64,000 nt of DNA from contig JAUXIK010000003.1 in the NCBI GenBank assembly GCA_030620995.1, positions 21,822 to 85,821 of the forward strand, read 5' to 3'. The notes beneath the pieces were generated by a model, which was not told where the DNA came from, ran no database searches, and saw nothing but the letters and a program-made list of their open reading frames with translations. The first letter of the stretch is position 1. Each line of letters starts with the position of its first letter. Below are positions 27,753 through 38,199 of the stretch, in pieces. A program made the translations under genes and the position numbers. This stretch comes from Candidatus Aegiribacteria sp. GTDB lineage: Bacteria > Fermentibacterota > Fermentibacteria > Fermentibacterales > JCC-6.

Positions 27753-28977
27753 AGTGGAAAAATACCTGTTCGGCAAAAGGCGAATGGGCATGAAATTCGG
27801 TCTGGACCGCGTTCGCTGTCTTATGAATGATGCCGGTAATCCGCAGAAAAGCTTCAGGACAATCCACGTTGTCGGAACGAATGGGAAAGGCAGCACAACT
27901 GCCCTGCTTGCAGAGATTCTGCACCACCTCGGCTACAAAGCCGGCCGAATAACGTCGCCTCATCTCCTTCATTATCGGGAAAGAACGGCAATCAATAATG
28001 TCTGGATACCTGAAGAAGCTGTAATCGAGTTTGTGGATCTTTTCAGAGAAAGGATAGAGAAACACAGCGCGACTTTCTTTGAAATAACAACGGTGATGTC
28101 GGCCTGGTTCTTTGAGAAGGAAGGTGTTGATTTCGTTGTCGCAGAGGCCGGTCTTGGCGGAAGACTTGACGCTACGAGACTCCTGGATGGCGAATGCACA
28201 CTTTTTACAGGCATTGAACTCGAACACAGGCGTATTCTGGGATCTACAGAACCCCTTATTGCCGCTGAGAAAGTTGCAATCACGCGGAGGGGCTCAACTC
28301 TTATTGCCTTCAGACAGAAGCCTGAAGTGGAGAATGTGATAACCCTCGCGGTAAAGACGGAAAACCTTGTTCGCATAGTACCTGAACCGGCTGATATGGC
28401 GCCTTCTCCCGGAGAGCATCAGAAGCGCAATGCAGGCCTGGCTCTGTCCGCGGCCCTGATGTTTTCCGGCTGTACGAAAGAAGATGTGCAATCGGCATTC
28501 AAGAAATCATGTAAAACTCTCAGCTGGCCGGGACGACTTGATCTCCGTTCGGGATCGCCTTCCATACTTTTTGATGTGGCTCACAGCCCGGGTTCGGTTG
28601 AGTATCTGGTTTTCCATCTGAAGAAAAACTGGAAACTTCCTGTACCGGCCGTAGTGGGATTTCTGGAAGACAAATTCTGGAAGAAAATGACAGAGCAGCT
28701 TTGCGAAGTTCTGAATCCTGTCATAACAACTACGCCTCTTAATGAGAGATCTCTTCCTGCCAGTTCTCTGGCGGAGCAGTTTCAGAAAGTCGGAGTTGAA
28801 GCGCTCTGGATAGATGATATCGGTGAAGCGATGAAACTGGCGCGGTCTATCCCGTCTGAATTGACTGTTGTAACCGGTTCTTTCTTCGTTGTGGGATACG
28901 CGATGCATCATGCCTGGCGGAATAAGTGGATAGCTCTGCCGGAAAAAGGGGTTGAGCAGAATCAGCTGTTCCAATAA
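27739..28977 (+). CDS. folC: Folylpolyglutamate synthase / dihydrofolate synthase
   Basis: IHVVGTNGKGST, TSPHL, TFFE, EAGLGGRLDAT, WPGR, DVAH. Confidence 0.93.
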   Translation: MNYAEVEKYLFGKRRMGMKFGLDRVRCLMNDAGNPQKSFRTIHVVGTNGKGSTTALLAEILHHLGYKAGRITSPHLLHYRERTAINNVWIPEEAVIEFVDLFRERIEKHSATFFEITTVMSAWFFEKEGVDFVVAEAGLGGRLDATRLLDGECTLFTGIELEHRRILGSTEPLIAAEKVAITRRGSTLIAFRQKPEVENVITLAVKTENLVRIVPEPADMAPSPGEHQKRNAGLALSAALMFSGCTKEDVQSAFKKSCKTLSWPGRLDLRSGSPSILFDVAHSPGSVEYLVFHLKKNWKLPVPAVVGFLEDKFWKKMTEQLCEVLNPVITTTPLNERSLPASSLAEQFQKVGVEALWIDDIGEAMKLARSIPSELTVVTGSFFVVGYAMHHAWRNKWIALPEKGVEQNQLFQ

Positions 28978-29058
28978 GTTGACAGTTATCATCAGACTGG
29001 TGTATAGGTACTGCTTATGAAATGGAAATTCAGTTCTGAAAACTGGAGGTTGAGTTAA

Positions 29059-29301
29059 ATGACCGATAAGAAAACCGCTGTCTCCGAGCAGCCGGATTCG
29101 CTGAAAGAAGATAACAGGGCAGCGCCTTTTACGCTGATAAATTATCTTCTGTTCGCAATCGGATTGCTGGACATAGTAATCGGATGGTTCCTGCTCCGAG
29201 GGGGACATATTACAATCGCTCCCATCATGCTTATCGTGGGTTACTGCGTAATAATACCTCTCGCGATCATGTTCAGAAAGAAAATAGCGGAAAACGCCTG
29301 A
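29059..29301 (+). CDS. Small 2-TM membrane protein (DUF3098-like)
   Basis: NY.LF.IGL..I..G......ITIAPIML..GY..IIP.AI; GGAGG RBS. Confidence 0.65.
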   Translation: MTDKKTAVSEQPDSLKEDNRAAPFTLINYLLFAIGLLDIVIGWFLLRGGHITIAPIMLIVGYCVIIPLAIMFRKKIAENA

Positions 29302-29302
29302 G

Positions 29303-30049
29303 GTGAAATACTTTCCCGCTGTATTTCTTGCGATTTTTCTTTTATCATGCGATAGTAATGATGAAATATTCTTTCTTCCTGAACCGCTTCCACTGATAGA
29401 ACAGGACACCGCTTTCATGACTGTTCCAGGCGGAACATTCATAACGGACGAAGATGATACTCTTTCGATAAACGGTTTTCGCCTGGGAAGATACGAGGTT
29501 ACGAACAGGCTGTTCTACAGCCTTGCTGATGATGTCGGAATAGGACTGCCGCCAGATCCGGTCTTTCCGGGAATGGAAAAGTATCTCTTTAATTATCCTG
29601 ATTATCCAGTTGTGAATGTCAGTATGAACGAGGCCATTGCCGCGGCGGCTGAAATGGGGGGCAGGCTGCCCTCCCGCATAGAATGGGAGTATGCCGCTTC
29701 ACTCGGGATATCAGGGGATATTTCCGGGCAGTATCCATGGGGACAGCTGGATCCTGACGACGCTGAATACCCGGCCAACTACCTTGCGGGAGATGAATGG
29801 GAAACAAGAGGATTGGACGGATACCTCTGGACGGCTCCGGTGGATTCCTTCCCGCTTACGGATGCCGGTTTCGCCTGCCAGGCGGGAAATGTCGCTGAAT
29901 GGACCATGTCTGCGGATTCACTTGTGCCGGTCTGCGGCGGTGCGTGGCTTTCACCTGCGGAGGGTATTACGATTAATAGCGTTAAATACCTGGCGCCGGG
30001 TGACCGTGCCCGCCATGTCGGCTTCCGCATCCTCCTCCCGGGGACGTAG
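29303..30049 (+). CDS. Formylglycine-generating-enzyme (FGE-sulfatase) domain lipoprotein
   Basis: LLSC lipobox; YEVTN, PVVNVS, RLPS..EWEYAA, GNVAEW, GFR. Confidence 0.85.
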   Translation: MKYFPAVFLAIFLLSCDSNDEIFFLPEPLPLIEQDTAFMTVPGGTFITDEDDTLSINGFRLGRYEVTNRLFYSLADDVGIGLPPDPVFPGMEKYLFNYPDYPVVNVSMNEAIAAAAEMGGRLPSRIEWEYAASLGISGDISGQYPWGQLDPDDAEYPANYLAGDEWETRGLDGYLWTAPVDSFPLTDAGFACQAGNVAEWTMSADSLVPVCGGAWLSPAEGITINSVKYLAPGDRARHVGFRILLPGT

Positions 30050-30163
30050 AATAATCAACACAACACAACCATTAACAACATAACTTCTATTGAGAGCTAC
30101 ACTACAAGGGTCAGGAATCATTCCAATAGGCGGCAGGTCTTCCTTCAGGTACTATCACCAATT

Positions 30164-30349
30164 TTATTTTCTTCTATCACGTACAAGGCATTCAAACGAT
30201 CTGTCCCATGTCTTTTCAGCTTCGGGAGAGAACATACATCCGGTGAATTCCCCTCTCCGTCTGTGATAGGCGATACATTCACGGCATATGCCGTGTCTGG
30301 GACAACCGGGGTATGTACAGGGGCAATTTTCCGTTTTACATTCATTCAT
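30164..30349 (-). CDS. Small Cys-rich protein (DUF6485-like)
   Basis: CPCTYPGCPRHGICRECIAYH...C.F...EKTWDRS. Confidence 0.72.
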   Translation of the reverse strand: MNECKTENCPCTYPGCPRHGICRECIAYHRRRGEFTGCMFSPEAEKTWDRSFECLVRDRRK

Positions 30350-30451
30350 TAGTATACTTATGCTCCCTTCAGATCAGATTACATATTCACTGATTGAAGA
30401 AACATCGTGGATTAAAGAGTGCCTGTCACTATTTATTGGAAATGGATTAAA

Positions 30452-31111
30452 ATGGTTAAAGGTGTGATATTCGATCTTGATGGAACGCTTCTCGATACGC
30501 TTGATGATATTCACAATGTAGTGAACAGAGTCCTTCAGTTGAACGGTCTTCCATCAAGAACTGTCCTTGAAGTGAAAGCTGCTGTCGGCAGGGGAGTGAC
30601 AGAGCTTGTACAAAGACTGTTTCCCTCAGGCGAGCTTTCCGGGCAGAGGGTGGAGAAGGTAGCTTCCGACATCAGAGAAATCTTTCTTGAGCATGGAACA
30701 GTGCTGACAAAGCCATACACTGGTGTTGAGGAGATGCTTGATACTCTTGCCGGCAGAGGTATCCCTATGGCTGTTCTCACAAACAAACCTCAGGCATCAG
30801 CGGAGAAAGCGGTTTCCGTTTATCTCCCGGATGTTCCTTTCAGGATTGTTCAGGGAGCTATGCCGGGCTTTCCCATAAAACCCGAATCGGAAATTGCTCT
30901 GAAAGTCGTCCTGAAGCTTGGAACGCTTCCGGAAGAAACTCTTATGGTGGGAGACAGCGATGTTGATATGGATACAGCAAAAAACGCTGGTTTGATCGCT
31001 GTCGGCGTATCCTGGGGATTCAGACCCGTAGAGTTGTTGCTCGATCATGGAGCGGATGTGATTGTAAATGATCCAATGGAGATTTACGGGTTAACACGGA
31101 CTCATCGTTAG
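30452..31111 (+). CDS. HAD-family hydrolase (phosphoglycolate phosphatase-like)
   Basis: FDLDGTLLDT, LTNK, KP, VGDSDVD, WGFR. Confidence 0.9.
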   Translation: MVKGVIFDLDGTLLDTLDDIHNVVNRVLQLNGLPSRTVLEVKAAVGRGVTELVQRLFPSGELSGQRVEKVASDIREIFLEHGTVLTKPYTGVEEMLDTLAGRGIPMAVLTNKPQASAEKAVSVYLPDVPFRIVQGAMPGFPIKPESEIALKVVLKLGTLPEETLMVGDSDVDMDTAKNAGLIAVGVSWGFRPVELLLDHGADVIVNDPMEIYGLTRTHR

Positions 31112-32076
31112 TATTCCGGTCCGACCACAGCGCGAATTGAGGCGGGAAGAGATTTCAGTATCGCAACCGCGTTATCCGGGATGTCACCTATCGATTCACC
31201 GTCCAGTTCGACCTCCAGTTTTCCGCGGGCCTCGAGCCTGAATTCGTTCCCGCTCCACGAAGAAACTGAAGGATTGTTCAGAAGAGTTCCCCTGTAGATC
31301 ATGGGCATACTGCGAATCAGATTTGTTCTTGAGATCGGCCTGACAACTGCGGTATCAAGTTTCCCGTCATCGGGAACTGAAGAAGGTGACAATATCATTC
31401 CTCCGCCGACAAAAGGACATACACCCGCTGTGATACTAAGATATTTCCCGGTAAACACATTTTGTTCATCCATTGTCAGTGTTCCCTCCCACGAGGGCAT
31501 TTCAATCAGAGAGGATACAAGAGCTGCCAGGTACCCCAATCTGCCAAAGGACCTTTTCCGCCTGATCCGGATTGATTTCTCGAGAACATGCGCGTCAAGG
31601 CCAATTCCAGCGGAGTTGATAAATATCTGATCAGCCGGTGAGGTTGGATTCGATTCTATAGAGCATAAGCCTGTATCCATTAAAGCGGTCTTACCACTTC
31701 CGATACCCCTGACTGTCTTCTCGATTGAGTTAGTTCTCAGGGTTTTCACCCAGTCGTTTCCGTTGCCCGCCGGAAACACCGCAAGCGGAAGAGGATTTGA
31801 GCTTCTTATTAGACCGGATGCAGCGTAACTCGCCGTTCCGTCTCCGCCGAGAATCGCCACACCGGACCAGCGGTCCGGATGTGCGGTTGATGCAAGTTCT
31901 ACAACGTGCTCAGCGCTTTTCGTAAAGACGATTTCGTTCGTGATAGAAATATTCGAAAGAAGCCTGGAAGTTCTTTCGGCAAGAGAAGCAGAAACGCCTT
32001 TGCCGGCTTCCGGGTTGACCAGAACGAGCCATGGCCTGTTCCCTAAAGCCGACTGATCAGTAAGTACTGTTCTTAT
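31108..32076 (-). CDS. Diacylglycerol/lipid kinase family protein
   Basis: VNPEAG (upstream of the ORF-track start), GGDGT, PAGNGND, GIGLDA, DDGKLD, DGE; start placed at ATA 32076, 8 nt after GAGGAG. Confidence 0.85.
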   Translation of the reverse strand: MRTVLTDQSALGNRPWLVLVNPEAGKGVSASLAERTSRLLSNISITNEIVFTKSAEHVVELASTAHPDRWSGVAILGGDGTASYAASGLIRSSNPLPLAVFPAGNGNDWVKTLRTNSIEKTVRGIGSGKTALMDTGLCSIESNPTSPADQIFINSAGIGLDAHVLEKSIRIRRKRSFGRLGYLAALVSSLIEMPSWEGTLTMDEQNVFTGKYLSITAGVCPFVGGGMILSPSSVPDDGKLDTAVVRPISRTNLIRSMPMIYRGTLLNNPSVSSWSGNEFRLEARGKLEVELDGESIGDIPDNAVAILKSLPASIRAVVGPEY

Positions 32077-32150
32077 TACGATATCTCCTCAAGTGTCTGG
32101 ATTCAATTCTTACATCAAAGTACTATATTAGAAAGGTAAGGTGGTAAACA

Positions 32151-32690
32151 ATGCAATCCTGTGCTGACTGGATAACAGATAATTTCGAGGATGCTGTGAA
32201 TCCGGATACGGATGATCTGAACAGAGCCGGTGAGAAACCTCCGGATTCCGTTTATACTCGCATGAAGGGCGTGAATTCTCTGATTATCCATCACTCGGCA
32301 ACAGCAACAGGTTCTGCAAGGGTATTCAGGGCATTCCACAGAGCGATCAATGGATGGGTGGATATCGGGTATCATTTCGTGATAGGGAACGGTAGCCTTT
32401 CAGAAGATGGAGAAGTGGAAGAAGGAAGACCTCCGTGGGCAGTTGGTGCGCATGCCAGGAAACATAACGGGGATACAATTGGAATCTGCCTTGTGGGTAA
32501 TTTCAGTGATACTTATCCGACTGAAGAACAGATGAAATCCCTGGGAATGCTTTTGAAAAGCCTGCTTTCGGAATACGATCTTTCTTCATCCAGTATCATT
32601 CTGCACCGGGACCTGTCCGGATGCAAAACCGTGTGCCCCGGAAAAAATCTCACAAGAGAGATTATAATCAACTCCATTTCTTATCCGTAA
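32151..32690 (+). CDS. N-acetylmuramoyl-L-alanine amidase (Amidase_2 / T7-lysozyme-like)
   Basis: IIHHSAT, GWVDIGYHFVI, GAHA..HN..IGICLVGNF, HRD...CPG. Confidence 0.9.
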   Translation: MQSCADWITDNFEDAVNPDTDDLNRAGEKPPDSVYTRMKGVNSLIIHHSATATGSARVFRAFHRAINGWVDIGYHFVIGNGSLSEDGEVEEGRPPWAVGAHARKHNGDTIGICLVGNFSDTYPTEEQMKSLGMLLKSLLSEYDLSSSSIILHRDLSGCKTVCPGKNLTREIIINSISYP

Positions 32691-32758
32691 CTGCTTTCAG
32701 GACTTGTCAGTTTTCCTCTTGTTTTGTATATCTGCGTACTCTGGAAAGGATATTAGTA

Positions 32759-32983
32759 ATGATAATAGTGCTGACGATAATGCATTTTATAATTTGTATA
32801 CTGCTTGTGGCTGTTGTGCTGCTTCAGAAATCCAAGGGCGATGGCCTTTCCGGCGCATTTGGCGGCGGAGGAGCCCTCACAGCGTCCTTCGGTAACCGTG
32901 GCGCTGCGACTATGCTCTCCAAGGCTACATCAATACTTGCTGTGCTGTTCATGGTTACTTCATTTTTACTCGCGATTTTCTAG
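32759..32983 (+). CDS. secG: Preprotein translocase subunit SecG
   Basis: VLLQKSKGDGLSGAFGG...LSKATSILAVLF. Confidence 0.93.
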   Translation: MIIVLTIMHFIICILLVAVVLLQKSKGDGLSGAFGGGGALTASFGNRGAATMLSKATSILAVLFMVTSFLLAIF

Positions 32984-33000
32984 CACGCAACATATTCAGA

Positions 33001-33087
33001 ACCGGGGTGGTGGAATTGGCAGACACGCTAGGTTAAGGACCTAGTGGGCAATAGCCTGTACGGGTTCAAGTCCCGTCCCCGGTACCA
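33001..33087 (+). tRNA. tRNA-Leu, anticodon AAG
   Basis: Acceptor ACCGGGG/CCCCGGT + A + CCA; Leu-type D arm GTGGAATTGGCAGACAC; anticodon stem CTAGG/CCTAG with loop TT-AAG-GA; long variable arm; GGTTCAAGTCC. Confidence 0.93.
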
Positions 33088-33095
33088 CGTCAGAA

Positions 33096-33127
33096 AAAGG
33101 TCGCAGGACGAAAGTCCGGCGGCCTTT
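33096..33127. terminator. Stem-loop after tRNA (likely terminator)
   Basis: aaaggtcgc-a-ggac-gaaa-gtcc-g-gcggccttt, GNRA-capped hairpin. Confidence 0.55.
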
Positions 33128-33150
33128 ACCTAATGGAGAAAAAGGGGAGA

Positions 33151-33285
33151 AAAAGGGGTCAAATCTTTACTCTTGACAATATCTTGATACCAAATGTAAG
33201 ACATTAGACGTATCATTAAAATCTTTTTAATAAGACAAGATAATGATGAAAGCAGAATGTCAAGAGTAAAGATTTGACCCCTTTT
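33151..33285. repeat. Perfect 28-bp inverted repeat with 79-bp AT-rich spacer (REPIN/MITE-like)
   Basis: aaaaggggtcaaatctttactcttgaca (33151-33178) and its exact reverse complement (33258-33285); short tandem duplications at both outer ends. Confidence 0.8.
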
Positions 33286-33369
33286 CTCCTTTTCTCAACG
33301 CTCTATTTGGAACAGATAAGTATCTTTGTATGTATATCCTGTATATGTTAATTCCAGAAAGGAGCCTGA

Positions 33370-33762
33370 ATGACGCGAAAGACCGTTCAGACAGCTGACT
33401 CTCCCCTCCCTGTCGGACCTTACAGCCAGGCTGTGATTTCAAAGGGATTTATATTCACCGCGGGACAGATCGGCATTGATCCTGAAAACGGGAAACTGGA
33501 AGAGGGTATTGAGGCTCAGACGGTTCAGGCATTGAATAATCTTGAAGCGATTCTGCTGGATGCCGGTTCAAATATGGACAGCGTCGTGAAGATTAATCTG
33601 TATCTTGCAGACATATCGGATTCAGCAATTGTAAATGATATATATTCCAGGAGATTTATCGCACCCTTTCCCGCGAGATCTGTTATCGAGGTTTCGAAGC
33701 TCCCATTGGGTGCTCTTGTTGAAATTGAAGCTGTTACAGAGCTGAAGGAGGAACAGTATTGA
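33370..33762 (+). CDS. ridA: RidA/YjgF family enamine deaminase
   Basis: GPYSQA, AGQI, FPARS, LP.GALVEIEA. Confidence 0.92.
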   Translation: MTRKTVQTADSPLPVGPYSQAVISKGFIFTAGQIGIDPENGKLEEGIEAQTVQALNNLEAILLDAGSNMDSVVKINLYLADISDSAIVNDIYSRRFIAPFPARSVIEVSKLPLGALVEIEAVTELKEEQY

Positions 33763-34427
33763 TAGGGCAAGTTTTTGAGATAGTCCGTCAGGCTGATATC
33801 GTCACAAAACTCATTCTTGTGATTATTGCTGTCCTTTCGGTTGGTTCATGGGCAGTAGCTATTGCAAAGATACGGGAATTCAGAGCGATTCTCAGCTCAT
33901 CAAAGATTTTTATGGATGCGCTCAGGACAACAGGCAGACCGCCTGGCGGGGAATTCTGGAACAGGAGCAATGAGATAGGACCGCTTGCGCGAATGTACGC
34001 TGAGGCAGGCCGTTTTCTTCAGAGAAGGACAGACAGGGGAATTACAGAATCTCTTTCCCCCGAGGAAGCATCCAGCCTCTCCAGCGCTCTTGAGCGGGAG
34101 GCAGGAGAGGATCTTGCCCAGCGAGAACGGAATATCGGACTGCTTGCGACTGTAACAAGCGTAGCTCCTCTGCTTGGATTGCTTGGTACGGTATGGGGAA
34201 TTCTGTCGAGTTTCATAGGAATGAGGGAACTTGGCATTGCTGATCTCAGCGCAGTGGGAGCCGGTATTGCGGCAGCGCTGACCACAACTGTAGCAGGATT
34301 GCTGGCCGCCATACCCGCGAATATTTTCCATAACTTCGTTGTCGGCAGGATAAATTCACTTGCCGGAGATATGGATCGGTTCCTTTCTGAACTTGTGGAT
34401 GTATGCAGAAGAGGCAGTCTTGAATGA
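33759..34427 (+). CDS. tolQ: TolQ/ExbB proton channel
   Basis: APLLGLLGTVWGI, GIAAALTTT.AGL..AIPA. Confidence 0.88.
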   Translation: MIGQVFEIVRQADIVTKLILVIIAVLSVGSWAVAIAKIREFRAILSSSKIFMDALRTTGRPPGGEFWNRSNEIGPLARMYAEAGRFLQRRTDRGITESLSPEEASSLSSALEREAGEDLAQRERNIGLLATVTSVAPLLGLLGTVWGILSSFIGMRELGIADLSAVGAGIAAALTTTVAGLLAAIPANIFHNFVVGRINSLAGDMDRFLSELVDVCRRGSLE

Positions 34428-34846
34428 TACGAACCCGGTATAAGCAGTTCTCCGGAATTAATGTTACGAATCTGGTGGATGTCACCCTTGTTCTACTGGT
34501 GATCTTCATGCTGACATCTCCGGTGATGCAGCGAAGCGCGGATGTCACTCCCCCGTCTTCTGATGAGGGAAGGATTCTGAGCAGCCTTGATCCCGGCGAG
34601 TCGCTGGTTGTCGAGATTGACGCCTATGGCAACATTGCCATTTCCGGTGAGCAGGTTCTGCTTGAAGATCTCTCGGATATTGCTGAAGCAGCCCATAATT
34701 CCGGCCGTTCCGAAGCCTTTGTCAGGGCGGACAGGGATGTGAGATACGAAGTGGTCGCGAATGCGCTCACCGAACTTGGCAGCGGTGGTTATCTTAGTGT
34801 GGGGCTTATACAGGAATCCAGATTGGAACCTGATGAAATTCACTGA
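34424..34846 (+). CDS. tolR: TolR/ExbD protein
   Basis: INVTNLVDVTLVLLVIFM, RADRDVRY. Confidence 0.88.
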   Translation: MIRTRYKQFSGINVTNLVDVTLVLLVIFMLTSPVMQRSADVTPPSSDEGRILSSLDPGESLVVEIDAYGNIAISGEQVLLEDLSDIAEAAHNSGRSEAFVRADRDVRYEVVANALTELGSGGYLSVGLIQESRLEPDEIH

Positions 34847-35519
34847 TTCCAGACCTTTTGAAAGGAAAAGTTACTTCCTCCGCCGCAGAGATGTCATCTT
34901 TGTCATAGCAGGACATGTGCTTATTCTCGTGGTTGGGCTGATTACGTCTTCGAGCAGTGTAATGGCACTTCCCGGCGGCGGTGACGCAATTATGGTAAAC
35001 ATGGTCACGTTGACTTCAAATGAAATGACACCTTCACCTCCGGATATAGAGCATCCTGCTGAAAACCCTGTTGAAATTGCGATCGAGGTATCGGTACCCG
35101 AAGTTACCGAAGAACAGATAATTGATCCGCAGGAGACAGAGGATCAGGTTCCGGATCCGGTGGAAGAGCTTGTTGAGGAATTACCTGTTCAGGATCCTGT
35201 AGAAGCATCAGAATTCGTATCTGTCAGCGGAGAAGGGGCAGCGGGGTCAGGAGCTCCAGGACCCGGAACGTACGAGTCAAGAGTTTTCAACGCCATAAGA
35301 AGAGGATACAGAACATCGGTGGAACCTGAAAGATCCTACAGGGTAGTTTTCACAGTCAATCCGGATGATACATCTGAGATTGAGGTTGTCAGGAAGAGTG
35401 GAACATCAGCGTTTGACAGAGCTGTGGAAAGCGCGCTGTCAAGAGCGCAGATTCCGCCGATGCCGCCGGGAAGAAATACTCCGGCAATCATTAATATTGA
35501 ATTTCTGGGACCGGAGTGA
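34833..35519 (+). CDS. TolA/TonB-like energy transducer
   Basis: N-terminal TM with His, Pro/Glu-rich linker, SG.SAFDRA C-terminal domain; lies between tolR and tolB. Confidence 0.75.
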   Translation: MKFTDSRPFERKSYFLRRRDVIFVIAGHVLILVVGLITSSSSVMALPGGGDAIMVNMVTLTSNEMTPSPPDIEHPAENPVEIAIEVSVPEVTEEQIIDPQETEDQVPDPVEELVEELPVQDPVEASEFVSVSGEGAAGSGAPGPGTYESRVFNAIRRGYRTSVEPERSYRVVFTVNPDDTSEIEVVRKSGTSAFDRAVESALSRAQIPPMPPGRNTPAIINIEFLGPE

Positions 35520-35523
35520 ACGG

Positions 35524-36711
35524 ATGAGGACTTCAGGCATGCTAATGTCCTTATTGATCAGTGCGGGAACTTTACTGGCGGGTGATTTTATTCCCATGAC
35601 ACCGGTAGGTGCCGAGTGTATTCCCGTTTCCATCAGTGTTAGCGGTGACAGAGATATTGCAGATGTAGCGAGAGAACAGCTTCAGGAGGATATCGATTTT
35701 TCCGGTCTCCTGATAACGAAGGATGACGGCTACGCCGAAGTAACTGTTGAGGTCAGGAATACCACCGATGGAATTGAGCTCAGAGCGGAAGTCTTTTCGG
35801 GCGGGGAACCCCTTTTAGCCAGGAATTACTCCGGGAATACAATCTACTCGCTTGTACATGCATTTGCTGATGATCTCGTATATGACCTTACCGGTGAAAA
35901 TGGAATCGCTTCCACATTGATTTCCTATATAACCAAAACAGGGTCCGGCTACTCTCTGGCGGTCAAATCAATGGATCCCAGATCAGAAAGACATATCATG
36001 ACGGATGATGAAGTTATCACAACTCCTGCGTGGTCGCCCGATGGTGACAGAATAGCTTTTACATCTTTTCAGTCCGGTAACGGTGATCTGTGGTGTTACA
36101 GTTTTTCGGATGCTTCGGCAAGGAATATTCTTTCAAGTCCGGGGCTCAATTCCTCACCCGCATGGAGTTCTGATGGCGAGTCGATTGCGCTGACACTTTC
36201 CAGGGGCGGGAATGTGGATATATATGTACTTGATCCTGCATCCGGCGAGACTGACCGTCTCACTCTCAGAGGATCCATTGAAACCTCGGCAAGTTTTTCA
36301 CCCAACGGAAGACAGATTGTCTTTACCAGTGACAGAATTGGATATCCCCAGCTTTATATCATGGACAGTTCAGGCGGAACGGCTATGAGAGCAACTCGAT
36401 CCCACTCATATTGTGACAGTCCGTCATGGTCGCCCGATGGTGACAGAATAGCCTATACTGCCCGGGTCGGGAACAATTTTCACATATTCGTCATGGACGC
36501 TGACGGCTCCAACATCCGTCAGGTTACATTCGAAGGATCTCTTAATGAAGATCCTGTGTGGGGACCTACCGGAAGGCATATCGCCTTCAGCAGCGATATG
36601 GATGGACAACGTGCTGTTTTTGTGCTGGAACTTAACGGGCTTACAGTGAGAAAGCTATCCATGAGTGGTGAGAGTTACTGTCCGACATGGTCACCGCTTG
36701 GATTCAGATAA
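35524..36711 (+). CDS. tolB: Tol-Pal beta-propeller protein
   Basis: H.FAD.....LTG..G; repeated PAWSPDG..IAF (PD40) motifs. Confidence 0.9.
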   Translation: MRTSGMLMSLLISAGTLLAGDFIPMTPVGAECIPVSISVSGDRDIADVAREQLQEDIDFSGLLITKDDGYAEVTVEVRNTTDGIELRAEVFSGGEPLLARNYSGNTIYSLVHAFADDLVYDLTGENGIASTLISYITKTGSGYSLAVKSMDPRSERHIMTDDEVITTPAWSPDGDRIAFTSFQSGNGDLWCYSFSDASARNILSSPGLNSSPAWSSDGESIALTLSRGGNVDIYVLDPASGETDRLTLRGSIETSASFSPNGRQIVFTSDRIGYPQLYIMDSSGGTAMRATRSHSYCDSPSWSPDGDRIAYTARVGNNFHIFVMDADGSNIRQVTFEGSLNEDPVWGPTGRHIAFSSDMDGQRAVFVLELNGLTVRKLSMSGESYCPTWSPLGFR

Positions 36712-36745
36712 TTTGATCATTTCTCCCATGAAAGGAAGGATGATT

Positions 36746-37291
36746 ATGATGAGAGTTCGATTGACAGCGGTGCTGGCCGTATCCGTCATGCTTGTGCTTG
36801 CAATGTTCATCTCCGGATGCAGACCGGATGATACTATTCCGGACGGAGATGACACAACCACTGTTATTGTAGAGGAATTCGCGGATACTCTTACCGGGGT
36901 ATGGGAAACAGATACACTGTCCTCCGGTATGGAAATGCTTCTTGTTCACCAGGAACAACTGAACGATATCTTCTTCAACTACGACAGTGATGAATTGTCA
37001 CCTGAAGCTCTTAATATTCTGATGGAAAACTCGTCCTATATTCTGGAAACACCAGGATTCAGAGTTCTTATAGAAGGTCATTGTGACGAAAGAGGCACAA
37101 TTGATTACAACCTTGCTCTTGGAGAGAACAGAGCTCTTTCCGTCTATAACTATCTTGTTAATTACGGCGTAGCTTCCACCCGACTTCAGTTTGTCAGTTA
37201 CGGCAAGGAACGTCCTTTTGATCCGGCTCATACCGAACAGGCCTGGGCATTGAACAGGAAAGCTCACTTCAGAGTTCTTCCGGGAAACTGA
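36746..37291 (+). CDS. pal: Peptidoglycan-associated lipoprotein
   Basis: ISGC lipobox; IEGHCDERGT..YNLALG..RA, SYGKERP. Confidence 0.92.
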   Translation: MMRVRLTAVLAVSVMLVLAMFISGCRPDDTIPDGDDTTTVIVEEFADTLTGVWETDTLSSGMEMLLVHQEQLNDIFFNYDSDELSPEALNILMENSSYILETPGFRVLIEGHCDERGTIDYNLALGENRALSVYNYLVNYGVASTRLQFVSYGKERPFDPAHTEQAWALNRKAHFRVLPGN

Positions 37292-37292
37292 T

Positions 37293-37979
37293 ATGACTCG
37301 AGGAATTATTACTGTGGTTTTCCTGTCACTTACATTTACAGGATGCTTTGGTTACTGGTTTCACACTCCGGAGGAGATCGTCGATATTGAAACCGGTCAG
37401 CAGGAAATGCGGTATGAGATTGATTCTCTAAAGCTGGCTCTGGAAGAGAATGAGAGTCTTCTGAGAGGGCTTCAGGCTCAATCAAGCTCACGTACATATG
37501 ATATGATTGCCAGGCTGACAGAACTTGCTGAAGAGCTTGACCTCACCCTGAGCAGGCTTGCCGGTACAGTTGGAATCACCGAACAGGATACTGTTTCGGG
37601 ACCCGATGCCCATCTTCTTTATGAGGAAGCTTACAGGCAGTTCCAGCAGGGGAGTTTCGAGATATCAGCACATGGGTTCATGGAACTTCAAGAGAAATAC
37701 CCGACCTCTTCTCTTGCTGATGACGCTTTGTACTACATGGCTATCTGCTGGGAAGCAGCCGGACAATCACATCGCGCCATAGAGGATCTTGTTGCCCTGT
37801 ATTACATGTATCCAGGTTCCGAATGGGCTGCAGGAGCATTATTCAGAGCGGCTGATATCTACGGTGCTCACAGCGCTCCTTTCGAGAGAGACCGTCTCTT
37901 TGATCTGCTGCTCAACAGGTATCCTGAGAGTGATGAGGCTGCTCTTGTCAGGGAACAATACCGTCCTGAACAGGATTAA
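37293..37979 (+). CDS. CpoB/YbgF-like TPR lipoprotein
   Basis: TGC lipobox, coiled coil, YP.S.LADDALY TPR; follows pal. Confidence 0.8.
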   Translation: MTRGIITVVFLSLTFTGCFGYWFHTPEEIVDIETGQQEMRYEIDSLKLALEENESLLRGLQAQSSSRTYDMIARLTELAEELDLTLSRLAGTVGITEQDTVSGPDAHLLYEEAYRQFQQGSFEISAHGFMELQEKYPTSSLADDALYYMAICWEAAGQSHRAIEDLVALYYMYPGSEWAAGALFRAADIYGAHSAPFERDRLFDLLLNRYPESDEAALVREQYRPEQD

Positions 37980-38054
37980 CGATAACCTGATTGCATGTTC
38001 CGCCAGATCGTGGTGAAGAAGTTTCCTGCTTATAGGACAGCAGTGTTATGATCT

Positions 38055-38113: not shown

Positions 38114-38199
38114 GCGAGAGTGGCGGAATTGGCAGACGCGCCAGATTTAGGATCTGGTAAGCTGGGCTTGTGGGGGTTCAAGTCCCCTCTCTCGCACCA
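38114..38199 (+). tRNA. tRNA-Leu, anticodon TAG
   Basis: GCGAGAG/CTCTCGC + A + CCA; stem CCAGA/TCTGG with loop TT-TAG-GA; long variable arm; upstream of tig. Confidence 0.95.

Follow-up and report, generated by a model that had tools for sequence, protein, structure and literature searches.

The secG locus of this Candidatus Aegiribacteria sp. genome encodes a tRNA-Leu with the anticodon AAG, which raises the question of how a tRNA with adenosine at the wobble position (A34) serves the leucine codons CUU and CUC and, in particular, whether that adenosine is deaminated to inosine (I34) by TadA. Outside tRNA-Arg, wobble inosine was previously regarded as all but restricted to lactic acid bacteria, in which recent work has linked it to genome-wide recoding of leucine codons. 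The preliminary description of this DNA had regarded bacterial Leu(AAG) as known mainly from some Firmicutes, and the accessible text of two papers bears this out, placing it nearly exclusively in Bacilli and touching only briefly on Mycoplasma and Prochlorococcus (PMC13249217; PMC8007984). The window referred to below is the whole 64,000-nucleotide stretch of DNA that was analyzed, and coordinates given without a contig name are positions within it.

Each element of the tRNA was first located at the locus. ARAGORN calls positions 33001-33087 on the forward strand as a type II tRNA-Leu with anticodon AAG, and the Rfam model RF00005 scores the same interval at 53.3 bits against a gathering score of 29. 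Inspection of the sequence reveals an anticodon stem, CTAGG (33028-33032) paired with CCTAG (33040-33044), that encloses the loop TTAAGGA, so that A34-A35-G36 occupy 33035-33037, G37 lies at 33038 and A38 at 33039. A34 at 33035 is the presumed site of deamination, and orthologues in the GAG clade carry G at this position. The acceptor stem, the 3-bp D stem, the long variable arm (TGGGCAATAGCCTGT), the T arm and the encoded CCA are all intact, with A73 at 33084 directly before the CCA, and the stems are conserved in orthologues. The preliminary account of an intact tRNA-Leu with anticodon AAG and G37 at the secG locus agrees in every detail with ARAGORN, Rfam and the sequence. A long variable arm and an A73 discriminator are identity elements for LeuRS, and since LeuRS does not read the anticodon, charging of tRNA-Leu(AAG) is expected to be unaffected by A34.

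The tRNA gene lies 17 nt downstream of secG (32759-32983, forward strand), a 74-codon ORF that matches TIGR00810 with 82.1 bits against a cut-off of 30.85. In E. coli, secG is directly followed by leuU, a tRNA-Leu(GAG), in line with the statement of the preliminary description that the tRNA in this place is usually Leu(GAG). A promoter scan of the locus found no sigma-70-like promoter between secG and the tRNA, and the two genes are probably co-transcribed, judging from their spacing and from the E. coli secG-leuU arrangement. Just 3' of the tRNA, RNA folding places a G+C-rich hairpin followed by TTT (33096-33127, forward strand), with -22.3 kcal/mol for the fold of 33088-33135; a terminator consensus scan did not call this hairpin a terminator, and it might act as a weak terminator or as a signal for processing. 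The genes downstream include a RidA-family member and tolQ/tolR/tolB-like genes. Two further features flank the locus. A 179-aa ORF directly upstream of secG (32151-32690, forward strand) has no NCBIfam match at E <= 0.001, and a ~135-nt element just downstream of the tRNA (33151-33285) is bounded by perfect 28-nt terminal inverted repeats. Copies of this element of ~130 nt and 84-89% identity occur on contigs C90, C48, C7 and C46, with partial copies on contigs C108, C82, C85, C158 and C65, and together they look like a small MITE-like repeat family.

The complete tRNA set was then considered for the whole genome (G000), a 2.97-Mb draft of 192 contigs that is 94% complete. ARAGORN identifies 45 tRNAs, among which the leucine anticodons are AAG, CAG, UAG, CAA and UAA; no Leu(GAG) is present among the 45 called in this 94%-complete draft, and the sole other A34 tRNA is Arg(ACG). 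This answers two questions left by the preliminary description, namely whether Leu(GAG) is absent and whether other tRNAs with A34 are present. By standard wobble rules, tRNA-Leu(AAG) is, on this predicted gene set, the only gene product of the genome that pairs with CUU and CUC. The only other candidate reader of CUC is tRNA-Leu(UAG), the partner isoacceptor for CUA and CUG (38114-38199, forward strand; ARAGORN, Rfam 56.7 bits). ARAGORN also made two unusual calls outside the window. A tRNA-SeC(tca) at contig C185:4971-5067 suggests selenocysteine use in this genome. A 'tRNA-Pyl(cta)' at contig C46:20358-20439 (L324 8358-8439) is probably a false positive, as a search of the 800 nt around it with Rfam gave no tRNA at E <= 0.01.

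To place the anticodon in context, structure-aware patterns for Leu(AAG) and Leu(GAG) were run on 70 Fermentibacterota genomes divided among families f1 (n=60), f2 (n=1) and f3 (n=9). Leu(AAG) was recovered from 50 of the 60 f1 genomes (this genome counted) and from the single f2 genome, and from none of the nine f3 genomes; Leu(GAG) was recovered from seven of the nine f3 genomes and from no f1 (0/60) or f2 (0/1) genome. The two anticodons are mutually exclusive, as none of the 70 genomes carries both, and the 12 that carry neither comprise 11 genomes of 61-88% completeness and one of ~90%. A34 is common to 51 of the 70 genomes on identical or near-identical tRNA bodies. Identical tRNAs occur in records labelled Candidatus Aegiribacteria sp. 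(L059, L083), near-identical ones in records labelled Ca. Fermentibacteria, Fermentibacteraceae, Sabulitectum or Hyd24-12, and the GAG-type records include Ca. Fermentibacter daniensis (L040). The preliminary description had considered that its relatives might all carry GAG and that the genome might hold a second, intact Leu(GAG); what we find is AAG throughout most of the sampled phylum and no Leu(GAG) in this genome. One Sabulitectum-type genome (G049) yields two identical Leu(AAG) matches, on contigs C25 and C87 and in one case at a contig end, which may reflect duplication or assembly redundancy.

The bodies of the AAG and GAG orthologues match at 80-83 of 87-88 positions. Comparison of 24 distinct orthologues over 27 predicted pairs reveals compensatory double changes at three pairs and no broken stem pair. 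This pattern indicates that tRNA-Leu(AAG) is a working gene under purifying selection, neither an error nor a relic, since the stems are kept and AAG and GAG exclude one another across relatives.

The direction of the change was addressed with an RpoB tree built from 16 taxa over 1260 columns. It recovers a monophyletic phylum (100/100) within which the GAG family takes a nested position and not a basal one, although the deep nodes of this tree are weak and unsupported. A constraint that unites the AAG lineages in a single clade lowers the likelihood by 7.1 lnL units, and the AU test does not reject it (p 0.223). The sequences are consistent either with one gain of AAG/A38 or with a gain that was later undone, the high-GC family having returned to GAG/G38; under either direction, positions 34 and 38 changed together. 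The preliminary description had proposed an independent switch from G34 to A34. That part stands insofar as the AAG state is independent of the Lactobacillales case, because the phylum is Fermentibacterota, neither Firmicutes nor Cyanobacteria, and a sister family keeps GAG on a near-identical body; the RpoB tree and AU test are compatible both with gain of AAG and with reversion in f3. Across this single-order phylum, the GC content of sampled genomes ranges from ~44% to 68%, with 65-68% in the GAG family and 44-60% in the AAG family.

Alignment of the phylum orthologues shows that A38 always accompanies A34 and that G38 always accompanies G34. The anticodon loop is UUAAGGA in Leu(AAG), or CUAAGGA in several genera, and UUGAGGG in Leu(GAG). 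The loop of Arg(ACG), the other A34 tRNA, is CUACGGA in 60 of 60 matches from 59 genomes covering both clades of the phylum. UUAAGGA differs from this Arg loop only at positions 32 and 35, and CUAAGGA only at 35.

We next asked how far the coupling of positions 34 and 38 extends beyond the phylum. A pattern covering both anticodon states of this orthologue recovered 108 loci from a species-genome collection. Of these, 59 combine A34 with A38, 45 combine G34 with G38 and four combine A34 with G38; none combines G34 with A38. That is to say, A38 is present in 59 of 63 Leu(AAG) genes. A generic Leu(AAG) pattern that left position 38 free and demanded a bacterial-type D arm recovered at least 117 loci on metagenome contigs, which carry no taxonomy. 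Among the matches listed, ARAGORN called 106 Leu(AAG) genes and made no call at 13 loci. Clustering at 85% identity sorts the 90 distinct sequences into 49 clusters, and none of these sequences is more than 75% identical to the tRNA described here. The loops among the matches listed are CUAAGGA (80), UUAAGGA (10), UUAAGGG (9), CUAAGAA (5) and UUAAGGU (2), so that A38 is present in 95 of the 106 genes and in 43 of the 49 clusters. With G34 in place of A34, this pattern returned 91 Leu(GAG) genes from two phyla unrelated to each other, with G38 in 78, U38 in 13 and A38 in none. Taken with the 45 Leu(GAG) genes of the collection scan, A38 occurs in 0 of 136. These A38 counts include non-independent kin and are therefore given with no p-value. 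The recurrence of the coupling on unrelated tRNA bodies is nonetheless striking.

Taxonomic labels from the collection point the same way. AAG is found on bodies typical of other phyla, namely seven labelled Hydrogenedentota or Nitrospiraceae (C32, A38), one labelled Verrucomicrobiota (A38), one Planctomycetales (A38) and four Patescibacteria or Kazan (G38); labels of metagenome-assembled genomes (MAGs) may be wrong, but in body these AAG tRNAs are similar to GAG tRNAs from the phyla that the labels name. On these scans the trait is polyphyletic. The records labelled Nitrospiraceae (L070, L123, L125) and Hydrogenedentota (L098, L100, L108, L116) share one Leu(AAG) body type with C32 and A38, so either the trait is common to both groups or some bins are mislabelled. 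The Patescibacteria/Kazan records (L036, L054, L117, L124) come from genomes of 0.6-0.8 Mb (G174-G177), and their Leu(AAG), which combines G38 with the loop UUAAGGG, forms a second class of A34 Leu tRNA. Neither the 34/38 coupling nor Leu(AAG) in Fermentibacteria was the subject of any paper found in the literature searched, which consisted mostly of abstracts.

The loop was compared with what is known of TadA substrates. According to the available text of PMC11472039, the editing consensus is YUACGAA for the E. coli enzyme and YUAMGRA for that of S. pyogenes, which edits both Arg(ACG) and Leu(AAG). UUAAGGA fits the S. pyogenes consensus YUAMGRA exactly, and CUAAGGA likewise. Position 35 is described in the literature as solvent-exposed in the TadA-RNA complex, and the C32-A38 pair is described as contacted by TadA (PMC3711424, in the portion available). 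With AAG and AUG test tRNAs, every tested mutation at 32, 37 and/or 38 blocked E. coli TadA (excerpts of PMC11066159), and the S. pyogenes Leu(AAG) is reported as not edited by the E. coli enzyme (PMC11472039). By analogy, some adaptation of TadA may be needed for editing of Leu(AAG).

A TadA candidate is present in the genome as a 143-aa ORF on contig C8, with 105 bits to PF14437 and both HAE and PCxxC motifs. Its best solved matches are all TadA, led by that of S. aureus (2b3j, E 2.9e-36), and it scores 115 bits on the TadA equivalog model NF008113 of NCBIfam, below the 150-bit cut-off. Orthologues were found in 14 of the 15 phylum genomes tested, the miss being the 80%-complete f2 genome. 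A second deaminase hit, on contig C160, is no TadA paralogue; it is ComEB/dCMP-deaminase-like, with 149 bits to TIGR02571, below the 219-bit cut-off. Comparison of nine TadA sequences from the AAG clade with five from the GAG clade (that of G046 being left out) reveals five columns fixed between clades. At four of these the AAG clade matches at least one solved TadA, which therefore points to change in f3 rather than adaptation in f1, and no TadA specificity signature was found in the AAG clade among these sequences and the solved TadAs compared. A prediction that lineages of the G38 type would be without TadA failed, as each of the four CPR genomes of this type yielded a full-length hit to the TadA family, at 110-118 bits. 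The A38-type genome G178 has no TadA-family hit above 51 bits. Because the four G38-type CPR genomes are positive and G178 is negative, the presence of TadA does not separate the A38 and G38 loop types.

The reading that best accounts for these observations, to which we assign a probability of about 0.68, is that tRNA-Leu(AAG) is a functional tRNA, the sole reader of CUU and CUC among the leucine tRNAs, and that its A34 is deaminated to I34 by TadA. The tRNA would be transcribed with A34, and the single TadA of the genome would then deaminate it, as for tRNA-Arg(ACG), to yield tRNA-Leu(IAG), which would read CUU and CUC (and CUA). The joint change of G34 to A34 and G38 to A38 would fit the anticodon loop to TadA by making it a near-copy of the Arg loop CUACGGA. 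We infer both the deamination of A34 and the role of A38 from sequence comparison; an alternative role for A38 would be to tune decoding by way of the 32-38 pair.

The foremost alternative is that A34 stays unmodified, so that the tRNA reads mainly CUU and reads CUC poorly, with Leu(UAG) covering CUC by four-way wobble and A38 acting as a decoding adjustment of the 32-38 pair. Codon usage bears on this directly. At 46.7% GC, this genome uses CTT for 35% of its leucine codons, CTG for 32%, CTC for 17%, TTG for 7%, TTA for 5% and CTA for 3%, and the CTT share is 40% in 28001-38000 and 37% in the window. CTT as the commonest leucine codon is what an unmodified A34 would favor. The preliminary description had likewise taken the high frequency of CTT in the flanking genes to fit AAG, and CTT is indeed the top leucine codon. 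Its excess is not specific to leucine. From 100-140 kb sampled from each of seven related genomes, the three GAG genomes (65-68% GC) use CTC for 46-48% and CTT for 9-11% of Leu, and the AAG genomes (44-60% GC) use CTT for 18-39% and CTC for 17-32%. Measured against six other four-fold boxes, the ratio CTT/(CTT+CTC) is shifted by +0.02 to +0.22 in genomes with AAG and by -0.04 to -0.06 in those with GAG. A similar excess is seen for the valine codon GTT, whose tRNA has G34; mirrored in this way and confounded by GC, the CTT excess is not specific evidence for a switch at leucine.

A persistent use of CTC argues against an unmodified A34. CTC makes up 17-32% of Leu codons in the five AAG genomes, and in the ribosomal/RNAP region of G002 (60% GC), a genome whose sole CUY tRNA gene is AAG, CTC outnumbers CTT by 34% to 17% of Leu. 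We therefore regard I34 made by TadA as the best reading, since TadA is present and CTC is still 17-32% of leucine codons. Expression level was also considered, as a contrast in codon shift is expected between an I34 box (Arg CGY) and G34 boxes. Leu CTY was compared with Arg CGY and with G34 boxes over the ~32-kb tuf-to-rpoA region. In AAG genomes most boxes show shifts close to zero (Leu from -0.18 to +0.07, with extremes of -0.50 and +0.22), and in GAG genomes every box, CGY included, shifts to C, so that the comparison has no power in either group.

Evidence from RNA was drawn from nine metatranscriptome runs that share a small part of the sequence words, four of which (X1-X4) were examined as assembled contigs. 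Two mismatch-free contigs (X2 record 5, X3 record 10) carry A at 33035, and G is not reported at that position in the contigs of the four runs. Because assembled contigs cannot show editing, this result is at most weak evidence for an unmodified A34 and is uninformative as to I34. Both of these contigs extend into the flanks of the tRNA, i.e. they derive from precursor or from DNA.

Three further observations lend weight to the unmodified state. Neither CmoA nor CmoB was found above cut-off in the genome, so U34 of Leu(UAG) may be without cmo5U and its wobble wider. Leu(AAG) with the ancestral G38 occurs in CPR lineages, so that A38 is not obligatory. Unmodified A34 can read C modestly, as in an orthogonal E. 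coli system where unmodified AAG read CUC about one-third as well as CUU (PMC11066159, Table 1, among the parts available). Set against these, the loop is an exact match to the TadA consensus that departs from the Arg loop only at 32 and 35, TadA is present in the genome, and surveys cited in the available text of PMC11066159 state that an encoded A34 nearly always becomes inosine. On balance we consider an unmodified A34 unlikely. The other alternative, that AAG is a sequencing or assembly error or belongs to a decaying, unused copy, might be prompted by the draft state of the genome (192 contigs, 94% complete), but is exceedingly improbable given the same A34 on near-identical bodies in 51 of 70 phylum genomes, the lack of an alternative Leu(GAG) in any of these 51, the stems kept by compensatory changes and an Rfam score well above gathering.

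Deamination of A34 by TadA remains the favored reading for this tRNA, and it invites a broader and more tentative one, whose chances we place somewhat short of even. Recruitment of TadA to a second tRNA may be a recurrent, convergent two-nucleotide step (G34 to A34 together with N38 to A38) taken in many uncultured lineages; the cases would include Fermentibacterota, a group of Hydrogenedentota type, tRNAs of the Verrucomicrobiota and Planctomycetota types and no fewer than 43 metagenome clusters with A38. If it is true, decoding by Leu-IAG would be far commoner than the Bacilli-centered literature suggests, A38 would predict editing of A34 tRNAs in bacteria, and the true class with unmodified A34 would be the CPR tRNAs of the G38 type. 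The Fermentibacterota state might then toggle with GC content, as the family at 65-68% GC carries GAG/G38.

Leu(AAG) is now seen across an entire family of an uncultured phylum from sediments and digesters, and a sister family keeps GAG, which makes Fermentibacterota a second natural AAG/GAG contrast, here in genomes of mid to high GC. The strict coupling of positions 34 and 38 offers a simple determinant by which a sequence-specific TadA could gain a substrate, and it bears on the origin of the multi-substrate eukaryotic ADAT. For annotators and modelers of codon usage, Leu(AAG) in MAGs is to be taken as real and, on the favored reading, as IAG.

Several known systems invite comparison. Eukaryotic tRNA-Leu(AAG) and ADAT2/3 share with the system proposed here a conversion of A34 to I34 in the CUN box, but ADAT2/3 is a heterodimer that recognizes the whole tRNA with lenient loop specificity, according to the accessible text of PMC11472039. 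In Patescibacteria/Kazan (CPR), as here, A34 replaces G34 in a bacterial-type Leu tRNA; in contrast, those tRNAs keep G38 in a loop, UUAAGGG, that misfits YUAMGRA, and their modification status may differ. E. coli leuU resembles the present gene in following secG within ~15 nt and in 83% sequence identity, whereas its G34 needs no deamination. tRNA-Arg(ACG), with the same enzyme presumed, provides the same loop frame, Y-U-A-N-G-G-A, on a G-C-closed stem, and differs at position 35, which is C in Arg and A in Leu.

The closest likeness is to the Leu(AAG) of Lactobacillales (S. pyogenes, S. mutans and Oenococcus oeni). There, too, AAG replaces GAG and the two never coexist in a genome, G37 and A38 are part of a loop that fits YUAMGRA, a single TadA is present, CUU and CUC are both used, and Leu(UAG) is present, so that the AAG/IAG tRNA is not required for CUA. 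The available text of PMC11472039 and PMC13249217 describes full editing of Leu(AAG) by TadA in S. pyogenes and S. mutans, and experimental demonstration that Leu(IAG) reads CUU and CUC in S. pyogenes, S. mutans and O. oeni. Editing has thus been shown experimentally in Lactobacillales, whereas in Fermentibacterota it is predicted from the genes. Between Arg and Leu, the loop changes at 35 (and 32) here, compared with 35 and 37 as reported for S. pyogenes. The genomic settings also contrast, with low-GC, UUA-dominated genomes in Lactobacillales and genomes of 44-60% GC here, in a phylum that carries tol-pal genes. At the level of predicted genes, the hallmarks of the Lactobacillales system are nevertheless all found in this lineage, namely AAG in place of GAG, a YUAMGRA loop and a TadA, and if Leu(AAG) is edited here, it would most likely extend known TadA tRNA editing to a new phylum.
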